Of a stretch of 50,332 nt of DNA, positions 22,165 through 47,526 are shown one piece after another (position 1 is the first letter of the stretch; the number at the start of each line of letters is the position of its first letter). Origin of the DNA: Phycisphaerales bacterium (GTDB taxonomy: Bacteria > Planctomycetota > Phycisphaerae > UBA1845 > PWPN01); NCBI GenBank assembly GCA_012729595.1, contig JAAYCU010000208.1, positions 1 through 50,332 on the forward strand, read 5' to 3'. The notes beneath the pieces are model-generated. The model was not told the DNA's origin. It did not search any database and worked only from the letters and a program-made list of their open reading frames with translations. A program made the position numbers and the translations under genes.

Positions 22165-22192
22165 GTGCCGAGAAAGGATTCTCGGCACAGCG
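22165..22192 (+). repeat. Palindromic repeat copy A (GTGCCGAGAAAGGATTCTCGGCAC+AGCG)
   Basis: 10-bp perfect stem with a 4-nt loop, 5 nt after the uvrA stop. A degenerate extra right arm (AATCCTCGGAC) follows. Confidence 0.9.
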
Positions 22193-22378
22193 GTCCTTAT
22201 CTTGAAATCCTCGGACCATCGTTCCAAGGAAGGTTCACCTCCGAAACATCGGTAGCGAACAGCACGTGATAACCCGGCCTTCGTATTGACTATAAACCAG
22301 GTAACTGGGCAAATACTTGTCATCGGGACAGGGTTTGATGACGTGATATCCATGCGCTGACTCGCCAGGAACCGGCCG

Positions 22379-22627
22379 TCACGAAACCGCCAGCAGGCTT
22401 TCCACGGAGATGTCCTCATCGACTTCAGGCCAATGAATACCAACGCCCCCGCCGATCAATCGCCATTTATTTCTTTGCCGACTCGTCGCTTGCAGCAAAC
22501 GGGGAAACCATTCCAGGGGAACTAATATCTCCCGCCCATCGGTCAAAACCACGTGCAGGGTATCGTCCCGAACGGAAACCCCGATCGCCAACGGCTCCAC
22601 CCTGGGTTTACTCGCCAAAATACTCAT
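22379..22627 (-). CDS. DUF2442-domain protein (partner of DUF4160)
   Basis: Pattern VSVRDDTLHVVLTDGREILVPLEWFPRL...HWPEVDEDISVESLL is typical of DUF2442. It overlaps the upstream gene by 20 nt. Confidence 0.85.
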   Translation of the reverse strand: MSILASKPRVEPLAIGVSVRDDTLHVVLTDGREILVPLEWFPRLLQATSRQRNKWRLIGGGVGIHWPEVDEDISVESLLAVS

Positions 22628-22844
22628 GCCATTTCTCCTCGATTGTCATGCCATGCCGTTCGATCAATTTCCGTATCTCGTGAAGTTCCCGTTTTTGAAA
22701 TCCGCGCGACCTAGCCAAAGCCAAGGGCCGCATCCAGAATTTGGCATAGCCCTCGCCCTTTTCGACATGCACATGAATCGGTTCCTCTCGATCCAGGCTG
22801 AAGAAAAAGAATCGATAACCTTTGATGCGCAATATAGTTGGCAT
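22608..22844 (-). CDS. DUF4160-domain protein
   Basis: MPTILRIKGYRFFFFSLDREEPIHVHVEKGEGYAKFW is the DUF4160 signature. Start taken at the internal ATG (22844). Confidence 0.85.
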   Translation of the reverse strand: MPTILRIKGYRFFFFSLDREEPIHVHVEKGEGYAKFWMRPLALARSRGFQKRELHEIRKLIERHGMTIEEKWHEYFGE

Positions 22845-22921
22845 TATTTCACCCCGACCATTGTAATCATCTCCGGACAATCAGGCAACAACGCGAACAA
22901 TATCCAGCTTGATAACGCGTC

Positions 22922-22935
22922 GTGCCGAGAATCCC
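22922..22935 (-). repeat. Palindromic repeat copy B (half element, inverted orientation)
   Basis: GTGCCGAGAATCCC equals the left 14 nt of the reverse complement of copies D/E. The right arm is missing. Confidence 0.6.
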
Positions 22936-23003
22936 GACGTGCGCTCGTCAGGGCGGAGCCCGTCGCCGCCCGGCCGGAATCGGCCCGGCAAGATATACCC
23001 GGG

Positions 23004-23186
23004 TTAATCGATCCCGGCGGATTTCAAAATGCCGTGCAACGTTCCACGGGGAAGGTCTCGTCCGTGAACCGGTACGACCGCCCGGCGGCGGGTTTCCGGA
23101 TGATAGAAAATGCAATGGGTTCCGGTATGATGGTCCTCGACAAAGCCGTGCTTTTTCAGCAGACGAATGACCTGACGGTACGTCAT
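23004..23186 (-). CDS. hicA: HicA-family mRNA interferase toxin
   Basis: MTYRQVIRLLKKHGFVEDHHTGTHCIFYHP...LPRGTLHGILKSAG (YcfA/HicA pattern with the conserved GxH). An alternative ATG lies at 23204. Confidence 0.85.
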   Translation of the reverse strand: MTYRQVIRLLKKHGFVEDHHTGTHCIFYHPETRRRAVVPVHGRDLPRGTLHGILKSAGID

Positions 23187-23196
23187 GGCCCCGCGT

Positions 23197-23436
23197 TTAG
23201 ACATGAAGGGCCTCGGGATCCACGGGGACGTCCACGGACGCGGTCAGAAGGTCGTCGTCATCGGGGATCGGTTCCCCGTGTTTGGCCAGGCTTACCAGGT
23301 AGCCGCTGATCGCGTCGCGGACCATCCGTTTGGCCTGGCGAATGGTTTTGCCCCAGGTAATGCAACCGGGCAACGCCGGGACCATCACGGTGTATCCGCC
23401 CTCCGGCTCCGCCCGCAGGATTATTTGATACCGCAT
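23197..23436 (-). CDS. hicB: HicB-family antitoxin (short, UPF0150-type)
   Basis: MRYQIILRAEPEGGYTVMVPALPGCITWGKTIRQAKRMVRDAI. It lies immediately upstream of hicA. Confidence 0.85.
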   Translation of the reverse strand: MRYQIILRAEPEGGYTVMVPALPGCITWGKTIRQAKRMVRDAISGYLVSLAKHGEPIPDDDDLLTASVDVPVDPEALHV

Positions 23437-23525
23437 TGCTCTGCACTCCGTATGCCTACATCATAGCATGAATACAAGCAAAAACAACGCCGATCACTCC
23501 CGCGTATCGCGGCCACCCCGACGCG

Positions 23526-23596
23526 AGCGAGGGGACGGAGTGACGGAGGGCGGGAGGGGGAGACGGAGGGATGGAGAGACGGAGAGAGGGAGACGC
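23526..23596. repeat. Polypurine/polypyrimidine tract of about 70 nt with iterated GACGGAG motifs, closed by a 7-bp inverted repeat
   Basis: GAGCGAGGGGACGGAGTGACGGAGGGCGGGAGGGGGAGACGGAGGGATGGAGAGACGGAGAGAGGGAGACG. The flanks GCGAGCG (23524-30) and CGCTCGC (23595-601) are complementary. Confidence 0.85.
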
Positions 23597-23601
23597 TCGC
23601 A

Positions 23602-23617
23602 CGAGAATCCCTTCTCG
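23602..23617 (-). repeat. Palindromic repeat copy F (core only, inverted orientation)
   Basis: CGAGAATCCCTTCTCG is the reverse complement of the D/E core CGAGAAGGGATTCTCG. Its edge (23617) lies 4 nt below the stop codon of the DUF4926 gene at 23622-23624, i.e. just downstream of it. Confidence 0.7.
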
Positions 23618-23621
23618 CGGG

Positions 23622-23831
23622 TCATGCCGAAAGGGAAACGAGATTCAGCCGCATCACCTGTTGCCCGGTTAATGTCGCCACGCACTTATGCCGTCCCTGT
23701 TCATCAAGGAAATCCACTTCGTAGACATCCCCTTCGGGATAGCAATGCACGACGGCCCCAACGTCCCCGGCCAACAAACCTTCCGCCGGCACATTCACGA
23801 TCGCCGTTACCACATCATGTTCCTTTAACAT
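23622..23831 (-). CDS. DUF4926-domain protein
   Basis: MLKEHDVVTAIVNVPAEGLLAGDVGAVVHCYPEGDVYEVDF matches the DUF4926 pattern as I recall it. Confidence 0.8.
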   Translation of the reverse strand: MLKEHDVVTAIVNVPAEGLLAGDVGAVVHCYPEGDVYEVDFLDEQGRHKCVATLTGQQVMRLNLVSLSA

Positions 23832-23834
23832 GGC

Positions 23835-24167
23835 TTACTCCACGAAACAGGTAATCAGTCTTGGACGGTCGCCGGCCTCGTCAATCATCCAAACCGCTCG
23901 TATTATTTTGCTCCCAACCGGTCCGCACAACTGAAAACTCATTTCATACTTGTGGCCAAAGACCGTGGCCGTGTCCCTGCTTACACTTTCGCTCACCGCC
24001 GCCGTAAGCAATGCTTTCCTGAGTATCTCCAGATTGGCGATATGAATCCCCAGCAACTTTTGAAACAAGAATGCATGATGCCTCCCAACCGGATGCATCG
24101 GATTGAGGACATAGTTTCGTAGCTTGCCATCCTCGACAATAGCCTGATCGCCATTCGGAAGCTTCAT
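23835..24167 (-). CDS. DUF6883-domain protein (usual partner of DUF4926)
   Basis: MKLPNGDQAIVEDGKLRNYVLNPMHPVGRHHAFLF...WMIDEAGDRPRLITCFV matches the DUF6883 pattern. Start taken at the internal ATG 24167. Confidence 0.7.
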   Translation of the reverse strand: MKLPNGDQAIVEDGKLRNYVLNPMHPVGRHHAFLFQKLLGIHIANLEILRKALLTAAVSESVSRDTATVFGHKYEMSFQLCGPVGSKIIRAVWMIDEAGDRPRLITCFVE

Positions 24168-24352
24168 ATCTTTATTGTAGCATATCTTCCGATAGCCGCC
24201 CAACCCGGTCAGGGCAGCATCACATTACCATCCGCCGGCGCGGAACAAGGCCCGGCGGAACAACGCGGCCGCGCGCACGCCTCCGCCTTTGGCGGAGGCG
24301 GGAATCCTTTCCCGCGGCCCGCGGGGTGTGGGATGGGAATCCCACGGCCGTT

Positions 24353-24434
24353 GTGCCGAGAAAGGATTCTCGGCACAGCGGGAAAGGATTCTCGGCACAG
24401 CGGTTCTCGGCACAGCACTACAGCGGCACAGCGG
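24353..24434 (+). repeat. Palindromic repeat copy C plus about 3 degenerate tandem right arms
   Basis: GTGCCGAGAAAGGATTCTCGGCACAGCG is followed by GGAAAGGATTCTCGGCACAGCG, GTTCTCGGCACAGC and ACTACAGCGGCACAGCGG. Confidence 0.9.
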
Positions 24435-24504
24435 AACGGGGCCGTAGCCGTGTCGGGACCGGGCTGGCCGTAACCTCTGTGGGTAGCCCGAACACCTGGC
24501 GCGC

Positions 24505-24539
24505 AAAAACGAGGCCCGGCGAATAACTCACCGGGCCTC
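24505..24539 (-). terminator. Second (distal) Rho-independent terminator after the surface-protein gene
   Basis: On the minus strand: GAGGCCCGG, an 11-nt loop, CCGGGCCTC, then GTTTTTG. Confidence 0.65.
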
Positions 24540-24598
24540 CGTGTTGTATATTCCGAATATCCGTACGAGCGCCGCCAGTTCCCGATTAGTCCAGCGCG

Positions 24599-24632
24599 AA
24601 AAAAGGGCCCGGTGGATGATTCCACCGGGCCC
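24599..24632 (-). terminator. Proximal Rho-independent terminator after the surface-protein gene
   Basis: On the minus strand: GGGCCCGGTGG, a 6-nt loop, CCACCGGGCCC, then TTTTTT. Confidence 0.8.
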
Positions 24633-24698
24633 TCGATTCAGCATCCGTTCTCGCACCGTCAACCGATCCTTGCGGGCCGATTGGGGTACGATTGGGAA

Positions 24699-26906
24699 CT
24701 ATTTGACAATCGTGCCGTTGGACAGGGCGTTAATTCCAGCCAACGTAGTGATATTGGGCAGGTCGATAATATGCCGACCGCCAGCATCATTCCAATCGGC
24801 ATCGGCAATAATCACCGCATGACCTTTTGTGCTGTCGATTGCCAGAACGACAATATTGGTCGTCCCTGCTGCGGCAGCAGCGGCCAGTTCTGCCGTCGTT
24901 TGCGTCTGAGACAGACGTACAATCTGACCGGCATTGCCTGCAACTAAAGCAGCAATGGTAGTCCCGGCCGTAAACGTATCAGCCGCAGCACCATAGAGAC
25001 CCGTCAGATCAACCACATCGCCATCAGTAAGATCGGTGATGGTGTCACCGTTCATGTCGGCAGCGGCATTGTAGACAAACACGTCATCGCCCGGACCACC
25101 TGTCAGGGTATCTGCTAGAGCGGCACCCTCAATCTCGTCGTCGCCATCGCCGCCGATGATGAGGTTGTTTTGCGCGCTACCGGTGACGGTTAGGTCACCC
25201 GCAAAGCCTGTGGCATTGACCGTGTTCGCAGTGACGACACCCAGATCGAGATTCTGATCGCCACTGACATTGACCACCTTCGGCGCGGCCGGGAATGCGG
25301 TATAGCCGAGATTAACATCGGCGACCGCATTGTCCGTCGTTCCCGTGGATACGATACTGAGGATATCCACGCCAGCGGTGCCAGTAATCAGACCCGTTCC
25401 GTCGCCATCGCCGCCGAGGGTCAGATTGATGGTATCGTTGTTGTTGCTGCCATCGAAGGCAAACGTCAAGGCATTGAGAACTTCGCCTTCAGCAAGCGAA
25501 GCAACCTCAACGGTGATCGGCCCGTCGGTACGATCAAATGTGTAATTGCCGGCTGCGCCCAAAGCCTCGTCCGTGATGACCAGACCGGTGATACCCAGCA
25601 CCTGCTCGGTCCCGCCGTCCTTGAAATCGAAGGCGCCAGCAAGGCCCCACAGGATCAGATCGCCATCCAGCTCCGACGCGTCGATTGGCGCAGCGCCGAT
25701 CGCGGCCGGAGTAACCTCCGCCAGGTTCAGGCTGCTGCCACCGGTGATGACCACCTCGGCCACGTCGCCGAAGAAGCCGGCGCCGCCCGAGTTGGTCAGG
25801 AAGTTGTCGCCGGCCACGTCGATATTCAGCAAGGCCAGATCGGCGGCATCACGAGCGTATTCAAAAATGGCGCCAAGAGCGGTGCCGCCCAGGGCCAGAT
25901 TGACCTCGGTCAGGTCGGTGGATTCCGGAGCACCCTGAGCAACCAACAACCGCTTGGCATAATCGGCGGGCATACCCAATCCGATCTCGTCATCCTGAAC
26001 GTTCGACAAGGTCAGATTCCCGCTGCTGCCCGCGGCGACATTGAAGGCCCCGATCGCGGCCGTATTGCGGGCATCGAAAACAGCGCTATTGAACGTCACC
26101 TGGAAGTTTACCTCGGACATCTGGATAAGCGTGGCCAAGCTCGCGGTATTGCCCGCGACGACCGCATTGACAACATCAAACCCGCCGTTACTGACGGCGA
26201 TATCGACGGCCTGGAGAGTACCGACCGAGCCGGTGAACACGTCATCGCCGGGGGTACCGGTGAAGGTGTCCTGCTCGAGCGTAAAGACGAACTCGCCACC
26301 TTCGGGGGTGCAAGCGCCTGTATCCGGATCGCAGAACTCGCCCTCGGGGCACTCGACCGGCACGATTACGCACTCGCCATCCACGCACACATTGGGATTG
26401 CACAGGTCGCCGGAATCCTCACAAGGATTCTCGTCATCGCACTCGACGGGCGCGGGGACGCATGCGCCATCCTCGCAAACCTCGCCCTCTTCACAATCCT
26501 CGTCAACGACACACTCGACGCACTCGCCCGTATCCGAATCACAGAACAGGCCTTCGTCGCATACGACCACGGCGGTCACTTCGCATACGCCATCGATGCA
26601 GGCGTCCGTCGTGCACATATCGCCGTCATCGCAATCCTCATCTCCCACGCAAACGATAAGGCATGTGCCCGTATCCGGGTCACAGACTTCGCCTTCGCCG
26701 CACTTGTCCGTCGTCACACACTGGCCGTCCTCGCCGCAGGTGTTGATCGTACAAAGATTGCCGTCATCGCAATCCGAGTCGCTTTCGCACTGCTGGCCGG
26801 GGCAGCCACTGCCCATGAGAAACAGGGTCATTCCCAACATGCCCGCGATCATCGCGAACCTGCGGATAATGGACCCACCACTGACGTTCTGGTTTCTACC
26901 TGTCAT
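24699..26906 (-). CDS. Secreted, lipoprotein-like protein with an N-terminal Cys-rich repeat region, a long Cys-free beta-rich region carrying RTX-like GGxGxD repeats, and a C-terminal tail
   Basis: GGAGG lies 8 nt upstream of ATG 26906. The signal peptide ends in LMGSGC. There are 29 Cys between residues encoded at about 26310-26804 (CxDxxDC/DGxC units) and none afterwards. RTX-like motifs GGDGDDEIEG and GGPGDDVFV are present. The listed ORF extends upstream to 27050. Confidence 0.85.
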   Translation of the reverse strand: MTGRNQNVSGGSIIRRFAMIAGMLGMTLFLMGSGCPGQQCESDSDCDDGNLCTINTCGEDGQCVTTDKCGEGEVCDPDTGTCLIVCVGDEDCDDGDMCTTDACIDGVCEVTAVVVCDEGLFCDSDTGECVECVVDEDCEEGEVCEDGACVPAPVECDDENPCEDSGDLCNPNVCVDGECVIVPVECPEGEFCDPDTGACTPEGGEFVFTLEQDTFTGTPGDDVFTGSVGTLQAVDIAVSNGGFDVVNAVVAGNTASLATLIQMSEVNFQVTFNSAVFDARNTAAIGAFNVAAGSSGNLTLSNVQDDEIGLGMPADYAKRLLVAQGAPESTDLTEVNLALGGTALGAIFEYARDAADLALLNIDVAGDNFLTNSGGAGFFGDVAEVVITGGSSLNLAEVTPAAIGAAPIDASELDGDLILWGLAGAFDFKDGGTEQVLGITGLVITDEALGAAGNYTFDRTDGPITVEVASLAEGEVLNALTFAFDGSNNNDTINLTLGGDGDGTGLITGTAGVDILSIVSTGTTDNAVADVNLGYTAFPAAPKVVNVSGDQNLDLGVVTANTVNATGFAGDLTVTGSAQNNLIIGGDGDDEIEGAALADTLTGGPGDDVFVYNAAADMNGDTITDLTDGDVVDLTGLYGAAADTFTAGTTIAALVAGNAGQIVRLSQTQTTAELAAAAAAGTTNIVVLAIDSTKGHAVIIADADWNDAGGRHIIDLPNITTLAGINALSNGTIVK

Positions 26907-27460
26907 TCTACTAGCCTCCATAAAACAAGAATTTCTGGCGTTCAATGCCTGAACTACTACGATGGAATTTCGACACGCGAACCTACGGTTCACTCCGACC
27001 GTGCTGCAGCCCACCCTGGGACGCGCTTCCGGACGGGATCCCCGATCCATCGGCCGACGAAAAGGCGGCCGATCGATCGGATCTCCCGATCAACGGCACA
27101 GCCCAAGAAAACGCCCGAGGCAGGATGCATGACAACATGTCGAAGCTCGTGTCCCAACTCCATCGAAAACAACTTACGAACCGAACCGGCAAACCAACAC
27201 CGGTTCCACCCACCGCCGCACTTATGTCCCGTCGTCTGGTCACCTCCCCCGGCCCGAAACCGGTAATGGCAGACTCGATAACTGGTATACTCGACAATGT
27301 TCGCAACCTTGTACGATTTGCACCATATTCATGAGTTAACGCGATCCGCGCCATGGACCACCGCCAACCCGCGCCCTGACAATCACAATACCTATCGCCC
27401 AAGCTCCCTTCACGGAAGCAACGCCGCAAGTACCACAGGGCTACTCTTTTCGACACGCCA

Positions 27461-27488
27461 ATCTTACGTCCGCCCTAAACGCTGTCAA
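27461..27488 (-). promoter_or_regulatory. Candidate sigma70-type promoter on the minus strand (TTGACA-16-TAAGAT), about 550 nt upstream of the surface-protein start
   Basis: Hexamers read from the reverse complement. No competing ORF lies between this site and 26906. Confidence 0.25.
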
Positions 27489-27813
27489 CCCCGCCATACA
27501 ATTTTTTTCATTCCCAAGGGGTTTTCTCGGCCCATGGCGTCACTGCAAACTTCGCTATTACGCACCCTGTAGTCCTTAGCGATAACGATAGCATACCCAT
27601 TCCAGCAGGCCAATATGCCTACCTAGTTACCGCATTTATCGAACGAAAGTCACGTTTACAGCAGCATTTCCAGCAAATAATACCACAAAACATCCGGTCC
27701 GCGCCTATTCAACCCCCTTGAACGCTAAAATACCCAACCATCGGACGAAATGCCGTCACTGTGGCGAAAAAATAGGGGGAGAGAGGAAGATACGTAGGGG
27801 AAGGTAGAACGGC

Positions 27814-27861
27814 GCGCCGAGAAGGGATTCTCGGCACAGCGGCACGGCGGTCTCGGCACGG
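27814..27861 (+). repeat. Palindromic repeat copy D plus a degenerate extra arm
   Basis: GCGCCGAGAAGGGATTCTCGGCACAGCG (one stem mismatch) is followed by GCACGGCGGTCTCGGCACGGC. It ends 18 nt from the hicB stop. Confidence 0.85.
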
Positions 27862-27878
27862 CAACAACCCGGCCTTTA

Positions 27879-28088
27879 TCAGGCTTCCACGTACTCGCAC
27901 ATGCTGCTCGGTTCGGGGATGGGCAGGCCGTCCGCCTTGAGCCCATCGATATGAAAGGCTACGGCCTCTTGAATCTCATGCTTGACGTCCTCAAACGTCT
28001 GTCCGGTGGCCACGCAACCGGGCAGATCGGGTACGTAGGCGGAATAATTGCTCCCGGCTTTCTCGATAACAATAGCGTAGCGCATCAT
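27879..28088 (-). CDS. hicB: HicB-family antitoxin (short, UPF0150-type)
   Basis: MMRYAIVIEKAGSNYSAYVPDLPGCVATGQTFEDVKHEIQEAVAFHIDGL. Shows ATGA-type overlap with the upstream hicA. Confidence 0.85.
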   Translation of the reverse strand: MMRYAIVIEKAGSNYSAYVPDLPGCVATGQTFEDVKHEIQEAVAFHIDGLKADGLPIPEPSSMCEYVEA

Positions 28089-28279
28089 TGCTCCCCTTTA
28101 TGGCCGGACTGTTTCAGGATACTGTTCAAGGTTCCGGGGGCCAGATCGTCGCTCGGTTTGCCGGGAACGGTCACCCGGCCTTGCTTCCGCGAATGCTTGT
28201 ATTGGCGATGACTTCCCCGCGTGGCCACCTGATCCCACCCATCTTTTTCCAGAATCGCTATAACTTCGCGGACCTTCAT
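28085..28279 (-). CDS. hicA: HicA-family mRNA interferase toxin
   Basis: MKVREVIAILEKDGWDQVATRGSHRQYKH...LAPGTLNSILKQSG. Start taken at the internal ATG 28279. Confidence 0.85.
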   Translation of the reverse strand: MKVREVIAILEKDGWDQVATRGSHRQYKHSRKQGRVTVPGKPSDDLAPGTLNSILKQSGHKGEQ

Positions 28280-28376
28280 TATCGTTCGATTATAGGGTCT
28301 CCAGGTAGGCCATCGCAAATAACCTGCGATCAGCTCCCAAAGCTCGACGTCACCAGCCGGGATCAAGGATATCGTC

Positions 28377-28418
28377 GTGCCGAGAAGGGATTCTCGGCAC
28401 AGCGATTCTCGGCACAGC
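28377..28418 (+). repeat. Palindromic repeat copy E plus one extra right arm
   Basis: GTGCCGAGAAGGGATTCTCGGCACAGCG is followed by ATTCTCGGCACAGC. It lies 39 nt from the GH57 stop. Confidence 0.9.
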
Positions 28419-32567: not shown

Positions 32568-32891
32568 TCAATGCATATCCAACTGAATCTTGATCGCTTC
32601 CTCGATCTTACGCATGTCTTCCTCCGAAACCGTACCGGCGCGGCGCAGGAGCCTCGCCTTGCTGACCGTTGCGAGTTGGTCCGCCATGGCCTTGCTTTCT
32701 CTGCCCCGAATAACCACCCGCGCCTCGCTGGGATACAGACGCTCGGTATTACCGGTAAGGGGAACAACCTGAACACGATTAAGAAACTTGTTGGATGCGT
32801 TGTTGCTGACGATCACCGCCGGGCGTTTCTTCTTGATTTCTCCTCCGATCGAAGGATCAAAACAAACCCACCAGACCTCACGCCTTTTCAT
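32568..32891 (-). CDS. mazF: MazF/PemK-family endoribonuclease toxin
   Basis: MKRREVWWVCFDPSIGGEIKKKRPAVIVSNN...VVPLT is the classic PemK pattern. Confidence 0.9.
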   Translation of the reverse strand: MKRREVWWVCFDPSIGGEIKKKRPAVIVSNNASNKFLNRVQVVPLTGNTERLYPSEARVVIRGRESKAMADQLATVSKARLLRRAGTVSEEDMRKIEEAIKIQLDMH

Positions 32892-33108
32892 GGGTCACAT
32901 CCTTGAAGGTCGATTCCGCCCACTCCAGAGCTTCCTTTTCGCGTCTGGTGTCGTCGGCCATCTCGGCGTAGGCCGACTCAAGATCGGGATGTACAACGTG
33001 CGGGCGAACCAGATCCTCCACGAATCGGCTTATTTTGCGGGCGCCGATCGTCCTGTGCAGCCCTTCGTACACTTTTTCGTCAAGCGTGATGGTCAGTTTC
33101 TTCTGCAT
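32878..33108 (-). CDS. Cognate antitoxin (RHH/MazE-like)
   Basis: A 76-aa ORF (MQKKLTITLDEKVYEGL...) overlapping mazF by 14 nt. AGGAG lies 7 nt upstream of ATG 33108. Confidence 0.7.
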   Translation of the reverse strand: MQKKLTITLDEKVYEGLHRTIGARKISRFVEDLVRPHVVHPDLESAYAEMADDTRREKEALEWAESTFKDVTHEKA

Positions 33109-33120
33109 CGTGCGACTCCT

Positions 33121-33313
33121 TATACGTATAGGTATGTGTTTAGCGGCCAAGCTATCAGAACCCGGAACGGAAGTGACGGGCCGATGTAGTATGGCGCACC
33201 GACTGCCGAAAAATCACCCTCATTCGGCCCCACGCAGCCGCTTGGGGTTCAGATGGGCCATACTGACGGGGTTTGCATGGTCGCTAAACACCTACACGTA
33301 TAGTATACGTATA
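33121..33313. promoter_or_regulatory. Paired operator-like sites upstream of mazE: the TATACGTATA palindrome occurs twice within a longer inverted repeat
   Basis: TATACGTATAGGTATGTGTTTAGCG (33121-33145) against CGCTAAACACCTACACGTATAGTATACGTATA (33282-33313). Confidence 0.35.
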
Positions 33314-47185: not shown

Positions 47186-47236
47186 ACATTATCACGGGCA
47201 GTACATTATCACGGGCAGTACATTATCACGGGCAGT
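47186..47236. repeat. Perfect 17-bp direct repeat (ACATTATCACGGGCAGT) x3, with partial copies on both flanks
   Basis: Read directly from the sequence: 47186-47202, 47203-47219, 47220-47236. Partial units extend the span to about 47174-47240. Confidence 0.95.
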
Positions 47237-47526
47237 ACATAAGCCGTCGGACGCCGGAAATCGGCATCGTCACAACGTAAAACCCGATACCGCATAATGT
47301 TAGGCACAGATGCAAAGAGCATAAAGTTAACGCTAATTGAGTGCTCGATGGACACAAACCACGAGAATTCGGCGAGCCGGACAATCGGCGTTATACAGAT
47401 ACCAGACTGACTCGTGTCCTTGGAGGACAAGCGTCAGTTATCGGACCATGAATTATGGGAAATGTTGCGGGCTAGCTCCGGAAACATATGAACTGGTCAG
47501 CGGTCATGACCGATTATATAGGCGGT

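Follow-up and report, generated by a model that had tools for sequence, protein, structure and literature searches.

The closest described systems are the repetitive extragenic palindromes (REP), bacterial interspersed mosaic elements (BIME) and REP doublets forming hairpins (REPIN) of Proteobacteria (E. coli, Pseudomonas), 20–40-nt palindromes with an unpaired conserved end tag that are mobilised by REP-associated tyrosine transposases (RAYT) (PMC3116915, PMC2817692, PMC3733652). REPs tagged with CGTC, which include Neisseria dRS3 and Rickettsia RPE, are described as having no dedicated transposase, and some of these families form large clusters; in the same work, the entries for Planctomycetes consist of Planctomyces species, whose repeats carry GTAG (Di Nocera et al. 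2013, PMC3733652). The class 3 TnpA(Y1) “REPtron-like” elements occur for the most part in Planctomycetes and Acidobacteria (Quentin et al. 2018, PMC6006769). The repeat considered here is a hairpin with a 3′ AGCG tag, present in each gap of a 6.3-kb region (the island) made up of small accessory operons between uvrA and a GH57 gene of a Phycisphaerales bacterium (contig JAAYCU010000208.1 of assembly GCA_012729595.1; “the window” is the whole stretch analysed, 50,332 nt, which appears to be the entire contig). An earlier note on this DNA had taken it for a REP- or attC-like boundary element of small cassettes. We consider it probable, at roughly 0.6, that the repeat comes from a hitherto undescribed family of short palindromes bearing a tag, REP/BIME/REPIN-like non-coding elements present in many Phycisphaerae. 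It is not a dedicated cassette boundary, though the window holds an unusually dense cluster of it.

The REP-like character that had been proposed is borne out: like REP, BIME and REPIN elements, the unit is a short tagged palindrome, dispersed in tens to hundreds of extragenic copies, found in inverted doublets or in mosaics able to fold into larger hairpins, and persisting across related species. Its tag differs, being 3′ AGCR (5′ YGCT in the opposite-strand form) where REPs have 5′ GTAG, so that by a GTAG tag it would not be recognised as a REP; GCAG/GTAG appears only within the spacer of doublets. Further differences are the perfect stem, the conserved 4-nt loop and the common tandem partial outer arms, and, with respect to RAYT-associated REPs, that no RAYT flanked by units was found in the window or in ≈0.8 Mb of repeat-bearing loci. 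CGTC-tagged REPs resemble the unit in their 8–10 bp stems, 4–5-nt loops, short unpaired tail, predominance of inverted dimers and lack of an adjacent transposase; their stems, however, start with A/T pairs as described, which the stem of our unit does not, and the conserved AGCR tag is on the other side of the hairpin. Three window units do have CGTC or TGTC just before them, but CGTC is not conserved family-wide. Class 3 TnpA(Y1) elements share the host phylum and have atypical hairpins that reach high copy number, but these hairpins have a 5′ CnGA foot and are found flanking the transposase gene; a gene of this class (NHVH...YVxxEQ) was not found in the window or the repeat loci.

Integron attC sites, and clusters of attC sites lacking integrases (CALIN), are like the window in that imperfect-palindrome sites lie between small, same-strand, often toxin–antitoxin modules, and one module of the window is polymorphic between strains. 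The attC-like feature itself is not supported, as the unit has neither GTTRRRY/RYYYAAC cores nor extrahelical bases, no integrase lies nearby in the window, and a 24-nt perfect palindrome stands against attC sites of 55–141 nt. The genomic setting differs as well: attC sites form arrays of promoterless accessory cassettes, while the unit is dispersed genome-wide beside housekeeping genes.

The evidence for a dispersed family comes from other genomes, since the source genome was seen only as the 50-kb contig. The 22-mer GCCGAGAARGGATTCTCGGCAC was searched for in a 596-Gb collection with one genome per species (GTDB), matches being taken as 8-kb blocks (loci, given L-numbers below). Exact copies lie in at least 118 blocks, and the matches listed span 18 species-level assemblies, all of them Phycisphaerae/Planctomycetota, with at least 41 blocks in one metagenome-assembled genome (MAG) and at least 20 in another. 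By our own arithmetic, ≈0.14 chance matches to a 22-mer are expected in the whole collection. Viral contigs gave no match to the 22-mer, and an Rfam search of the repeat (E up to 1) returned nothing. The literature searched holds REP families for two Planctomyces species and describes neither interspersed repeats for Phycisphaerae nor the sequence of this repeat; tagged palindromic interspersed repeats are thus previously undescribed for Phycisphaerae in that literature, and the unit family is new there.

The sites are almost always extragenic. Of the 136 sites in the repeat-bearing loci, 108 are outside called genes, although non-coding DNA makes up only 18% there (82% is coding). The remaining 28 look intragenic, but all except ≈2 are no more than 140 nt from a predicted start, pointing to over-extension of starts by the gene caller. 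The classified gaps (55 tandem, 18 convergent and 12 divergent) occur in the same proportions as all gaps there, orientation in tandem gaps shows no significant bias (sense to antisense 21:34), and flanking genes have the size distribution of all genes (Mann–Whitney p = 0.31). Among the neighbours, the families that recur are ABC transporters, histidine kinases, CysRS, glycine-cleavage P protein, HlyD and large secreted proteins. None of the 742 proteins of the repeat loci is homologous to the window HicA, HicB, DUF4160, DUF2442, DUF4926 or DUF6883, and none of the 44 small flanking proteins matches a toxin–antitoxin Pfam family, so the proposed enrichment beside toxin–antitoxin or small accessory genes is not seen. 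Only one site is present in 100 of the 118 blocks listed. Scatter at generic intergenic positions, beside normal-size and housekeeping genes and with no association to accessory genes, was what the earlier note had named as evidence against a boundary element for small cassettes, and it is largely what the 18 assemblies listed display.

The anatomy of the unit was compared over 222 units of the window and of related loci, all sharing the core GAGAA-RGGA-TTCTC. The unit is a DNA stem-loop in which this constant core is extended by a covarying 5-bp outer stem and followed by an unpaired 3′ AGCR tag. The outer stem is perfectly paired over its 5 bp in 190 of the 222 units, in seven compensatory types (GTGCC/GGCAC, GGACC/GGTCC, GGTGC/GCACC, CGCAC/GTGCG, GGAGC/GCTCC, CGTGC/GCACG and GGGCC/GGCCC). 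AGCR stands directly 3′ of the stem in 196 of 222, its side being without exception the one given by the RGGA loop. With the tag side fixed by the loop and the outer stem paired, the unit is therefore an asymmetric tagged stem-loop. A DNA-uptake sequence, i.e., a functional 10–14-mer word, was considered as well and rejected, because the outer stem varies compensatorily while the pairing stays.

Units occur singly, as inverted doublets with the tags pointing outward (77 of 129 sites) and as four-hairpin mosaics. The doublet has in most other genomes the form (A)TCGCT-GGACCGAGAATCCCTTCTCGGTCC-TCTGGCAG-GTGCCGAGAAAGGATTCTCGGCAC-AGCRTA, and 70 doublets have sharply bounded outer ends, TCGCT...AGCRTA, that are inverted relative to each other; the AGCG tail, which had been described as non-palindromic, is therefore the terminal inverted repeat at the outside of a larger element. 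Partial arms lie on both outer sides of doublets, and about one-fifth of units have at least one extra arm. The mosaic (hairpins d, a, b and c) is found in the window, where the example spans 24298–24433, and in CAYNYK01 and CAZZFA01. Hairpin d is CGCT-CGCACGAGAA-TCCC-TTCTCGTGCG, hairpin b has the general form GTGGGAT-RGGA-ATCCCAC, and hairpin c is the one originally reported, with partial arms after it. Folding of the mosaic gives a single branched structure, with −48.8 kcal/mol (z −7.4) in L022 and −47.6 kcal/mol (z −8.0) in the window (24285–24432), while single window units (10-bp stem, 4-nt loop) fold at −12 to −16 kcal/mol with z about −5. A third hairpin family, CGCGGGCTAAAGCCCGCGG, often adjoins doublets, just downstream (L047, L072, L085, L094, L097 and L111), and a longer conserved element, CATAAAAAACGCGACTATCA ... 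TATAGTCGTATTACTTGTGAAACACGGTACTAG, surrounds many of the doublets in JAUWWQ01.

Positions turn over between genomes. In the syntenic pairs L024/L116 and L021/L109, both about 88–89% identical, the doublet lies in the same gap, in the latter pair flipped relative to the flanking genes. In the more diverged pairs L069/L094, L012/L078 and L057/L117 (65–77% identical), the doublet is present in one genome only or in another gap. The unit sequence is identical throughout all the syntenic pairs compared. Judged from these sequences, a constant unit at shifting positions is what would be expected of an element still being copied or homogenised, and not of ancient fixed sites. A 2.7-kb segment at L024 2375–5090 (CP070827), missing from the orthologous JAUWWQ01 site (L116), has the doublet, in a second copy, at its start, and its open reading frames (ORFs) are all short and low-scoring.

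Several results weigh against a REP-like family. The cognate RAYT, integrase or HUH enzyme suggested in the earlier note is not linked to the unit in the DNA covered: a Pfam scan of all 40 genes of the 50-kb window gave no integrase or other recombinase and no Y1/HUH or other transposase, and the repeat-bearing loci have three Y1_Tnp-like genes (L060, L092 and, weakly, L034), none flanked by the unit. The 70 bounded doublets show no target-site duplication, such as a MITE would have in addition to its terminal inverted repeats, apart from a single T on either side. Genomes with orthologous genes of only 65–75% identity have the 22-mer in identical form, which also fits selection for a host function. 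Finally, the window density of 6 sites in 6.3 kb exceeds the maximum of 3 per 8 kb among the 118 blocks listed, and a REP-like model alone leaves this local density only partly explained.

Two of the Y1_Tnp-like genes have repeats of other kinds next to them. At L034 4750–5650, copies of a classical GTAG REP, GTAGGGCGGGCTATTGCCCGCC, both direct and inverted, flank a RAYT-like Y1 transposase gene; the locus resembles a REPtron belonging to another repeat family, and its genome has the AGCR-tagged unit as well. At L092 1–108, a tandem array of about eight copies of a 14-nt sequence, CCTTGTGGGTGGCG, lies just downstream (3′) of a minus-strand Y1_Tnp gene.

If the repeat is a REP-like family, the units most likely survive as DNA that is non-coding, selfish or near-neutral. 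A putative protein, supplied in trans, would recognise the folded single strand by its stem, asymmetric loop and tag, and would copy it or re-join it. The partial arms, whose number differs between closely related strains, may be by-products of such processing, or else of slippage during replication at the hairpin. Deletion, insertion and allele exchange in the DNA around them would be favoured by the hairpins and by their homology to one another. In the window, the units have accumulated in all gaps of the 6.3-kb accessory stretch and do not define cassettes there. That the units mark recombination-prone DNA is already partly established, because end points of module gain or loss and of allele replacement lie in or beside them (see below).

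The alternative that survives best, though we consider it unlikely, is a structural motif with a function for the host, that is, a hairpin kept by selection as a binding site or structure serving the cell and not mobile DNA: a nucleoid protein or gyrase site, a domain boundary, an RNA 3′ stabiliser or a GGA-loop protein-binding hairpin, for example. Its main support is that the 22-mer is identical in the 18 assemblies listed while syntenic coding DNA is 65–89% identical, and to this may be added the invariable RGGA loop, the pairing of the stem kept by compensatory changes, and the retention of the site at orthologous positions in the closest genome pairs. Sites are, however, not conserved in the more diverged syntenic pairs and have no bias of orientation or gap class, two of the window units (C and C′, below) lie outside the detected transcript, truncated units and tandem half-arms vary between strains, and the repeat has no Rfam match.

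In the window itself, the earlier description stands up well as regards the copies and their placement. The four full copies, GTGCCGAGAARGGATTCTCGGCAC-AGCG, are indeed at 22165, 24353, 27814 and 28377, all on the plus strand: a search with the 28-nt motif GTGCCGAGAARGGATTCTCGGCACAGCG (≤3 mismatches) finds these four and no others, that at 27814 with one mismatch, and 100 shuffles gave no match. A generalised search for a perfect stem of ≥6 bp around an RGGA/TCCY loop gives seven hairpins against a chance expectation of 0.3, all within 22165–28400, so the restriction of the motif to the island within the 50 kb holds too. Sites are present in 6 of 6 island gaps of ≥50 nt and in 0 of 20 in the rest of the window (Fisher p = 4e-6), upholding the claim of one site per gap; the test used a codon log-likelihood gene caller that reproduces the genes of the window. 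Each name in the proposed gene order is confirmed by Pfam (DUF2442, DUF4160, HicA, HicB, DUF4926, DUF6883, the large secreted protein, HicB, HicA and GH57). The repeats are real DNA and not an assembly artefact, as contigs from independent public runs cross them at 100% identity.

Unit A (22165–22192, plus strand) begins 4 nt past the uvrA stop codon in a convergent gap and consists of the hairpin GTGCCGAGAA-AGGA-TTCTCGGCAC and the AGCG tag, with no mismatch; its DNA folds at −12.1 kcal/mol (z −5.2). The two partial copies in opposite orientation were recovered at 22918–22935 and 23594–23619, both on the minus strand. The first, site E, between DUF4160 and hicA, is a truncated inverted unit, CGTC-GTGCCGAGAA-TCCC, comprising the CGTC tag, left arm and loop only. 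The second, hairpin d′, is an inverted unit, CGCT-CG-CACGAGAA-TCCC-TTCTCGCG, with a CGCT tag and a variant outer stem; it lies 2 nt downstream of the DUF4926 stop codon and matches hairpin d of the four-hairpin mosaic in CAYNYK01/CAZZFA01. The DUF6883–DUF4926 gene pair (Pfam; 23622–24203, minus strand) lies between d′ and hairpins a–b–c, namely hairpin a (24298–24315, minus strand, GCGGGAA-TCCT-TTCCCGC), hairpin b (24328–24345, plus strand, GTGGGAT-GGGA-ATCCCAC) and unit C, which is hairpin c (24353–24380, plus strand, with AGCG tag). Unit C′ (27814–27841, plus strand) sits 38 nt downstream of the hicB stop codon, its one mismatch being in the GCGCC left arm, and has the AGCG tag. Unit D (28377–28404, plus strand, with AGCG tag; −15.9 kcal/mol, z −5.1) has the GH57 stop codon on one side and the hicAB promoter region on the other.

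One to three extra right arms had been said to follow every full copy, and this is true of three of the four. The right arm TTCTCGGCACAGC recurs at 24389, 24404 and 28406, with a degenerate arm at 27850, while copy A has no convincing extra arm. The tandem partial arms after unit C occupy 24381–24433 (GGAAAGGATTCTCGGCACAGCG, GTTCTCGGCACAGC and ACTACAGCGGCACAGCG), the degenerate ones after C′ 27842–27862 (GCACGGCG and GTCTCGGCACGGC), and a perfect single arm, ATTCTCGGCACAGC, follows unit D at 28405–28418, all on the plus strand.

A related strain, represented by DNA runs X8, X11, X16, X18, X19 and X20 from at least three further studies, differs from the window at these very places. It is ≈98–100% identical at the island ends and 99.5% again by 26770, but 90.7% over hicBA (22961–23518) and ≈90% over 24270–24539, and the 3′ part of its surface-protein gene cannot be aligned; the divergence of hicBA between its closer flanks suggests allele replacement of that module. 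The DUF6883–DUF4926 pair is missing (joint 23518→24270, with zero depth in all six runs). After a G/A-rich tract the strain continues with 24270–24296; hairpin d follows as an insert of 36 nt (TCAGCTCGCACGTGAATCCCTTCTCGTGCGTCCTCC), and after it a, b and c, so that the strain possesses the unbroken d–a–b–c mosaic, whose hairpins the window has on either side of the gene pair. Site E is 159 nt with a full unit in the related strain and 66 nt with a half unit in the window; the tandem arms after unit C are missing, the joint being 24378→24481 with 31 other letters; and the region of unit C′ has an extra 15-nt arm, with insertions after 27822 and 27838. An apparent large deletion in run X11 (joint 22195→24481) was discarded as mapping ambiguity between the identical units A and C. 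The G/A-rich tract of the window (23519–23597) lies between hairpin d′ and the hicB promoter region, and a 33-nt piece of it (23560–23592), which matches short contigs at 25–92x depth in several runs, far above the depth of the organism, is probably shared low-complexity sequence.

The polymorphism of the DUF6883–DUF4926 pair genuinely supports linking the repeat to gain or loss of modules, and with the six-for-six pattern of the island gaps it is the main argument for an attC-like site at which a putative recombinase would insert and excise small modules and would have built the island. We nevertheless hold this explanation to be quite improbable. The contrast of 6/6 island gaps with 0/20 others, the single orientation of the four full units and the doublet at the start of the 2.7-kb extra segment in L024 (relative to L116) agree with it, as does the placing of the pair between hairpins that are contiguous in the related strain. 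The strain difference, however, needs at least two events, a segment of ≈676 nt (23594–24269) and a separate 36-nt hairpin indel at 24296/24297, so that the junction is not one clean event. Hairpin d′ and site E are inverted with respect to the other units, and the modules therefore have no common layout of genes plus site. Elsewhere units flank ordinary genes of normal size and no toxin–antitoxin families, the 50 kb has no integrase or transposase, attC features are lacking, and the two contexts of DUF6883–DUF4926 pairs that were read in other DNA (L199 and L200) have no hairpin. An internal control is provided by window 32568–33150, where a MazF/PemK toxin gene (107 aa) and an overlapping 90-aa partner with no Pfam match, which looks like a further toxin–antitoxin pair, have no repeat in either flanking gap.

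Harder still to credit is the fuller version in which the AGCR-tagged hairpins would be recombination sites of hairpin-directed module capture, with an integron-like outcome from a putative enzyme and without attC or IntI, that assembled the toxin–antitoxin/surface-protein island between uvrA and GH57 at one module per site. Searches with proteins of the window gave the following: a metagenome scan with UvrA found relatives of ≤60% identity, none with the repeat or an adjacent GH57 gene; DUF6883 homologues are ≤64% identical and on short contigs; and exact-protein look-ups of the window GH57 and HicB found nothing on record.

Transcription bears on the remaining question, whether the repeat is a terminator. 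The two canonical intrinsic terminators reported after the surface-protein gene are present, at 24599–24632 (minus strand, read in the sequence and outside the repeat family) and, from a terminator search of the window, at 24511–24539. In four bioreactor metatranscriptomes, the surface-protein gene is the only strongly represented transcript of the region, with contigs identical to the window from ≈27300–27617 down to 24629–24639, where they end at the upstream foot of the first of these hairpins, short of the repeat; the small operons yielded almost no RNA contigs. Units C (24353) and C′ (27814) are outside the surface-protein contigs, though zero contig depth does not prove RNA absent. No T-run lies beside the units on either strand, and they are not among the terminator-like matches in the window. 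The absence of a T-run, the units in divergent as well as convergent gaps and the ends of the RNA contigs at a canonical terminator together support the earlier view that the repeat is not simply a terminator. A reused bidirectional terminator of small operons, to which a stable G+C-rich hairpin 17–190 nt downstream of several stop codons would be suited, is thus highly improbable in an organism that uses canonical hairpin-plus-T terminators, the more so as divergent gaps hold 12 of the 85 classified sites. The surface protein itself (window 24699–27617; 783 aa) is secreted and has cysteine repeats, with weak matches to RTX and DUF7107, and its RNA contigs extend ≈560 nt upstream of the start codon.

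Read as a REP-like family, the repeat is of interest in that Phycisphaerae are almost entirely uncultured, and a new repeat family is here added to a poorly studied class. A conserved, recognisable unit aids annotation and accounts for breaks in contigs, for small ORFs that are false and for what look like “cassette” patterns in MAGs. Between strains, loss of modules, replacement of alleles and changes of arm number at the repeat sites make the repeats markers of genome plasticity. The family is also a test case of whether a repeat with no adjacent RAYT, yet strongly conserved across species, is selfish, host-serving or both.

Two further repeats were noted. A dispersed repeat of ≈125 nt, 92–95% identical between two assemblies (L043 3559–3684; L073 502–625 and 5791–5916), is unrelated to the hairpin unit. 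In the window, at 47186–47240 in the gap upstream of fliS, three overlapping 21-nt copies of ACATTATCACGGGCAGTACAT form a perfect tandem repeat with a 17-nt period.

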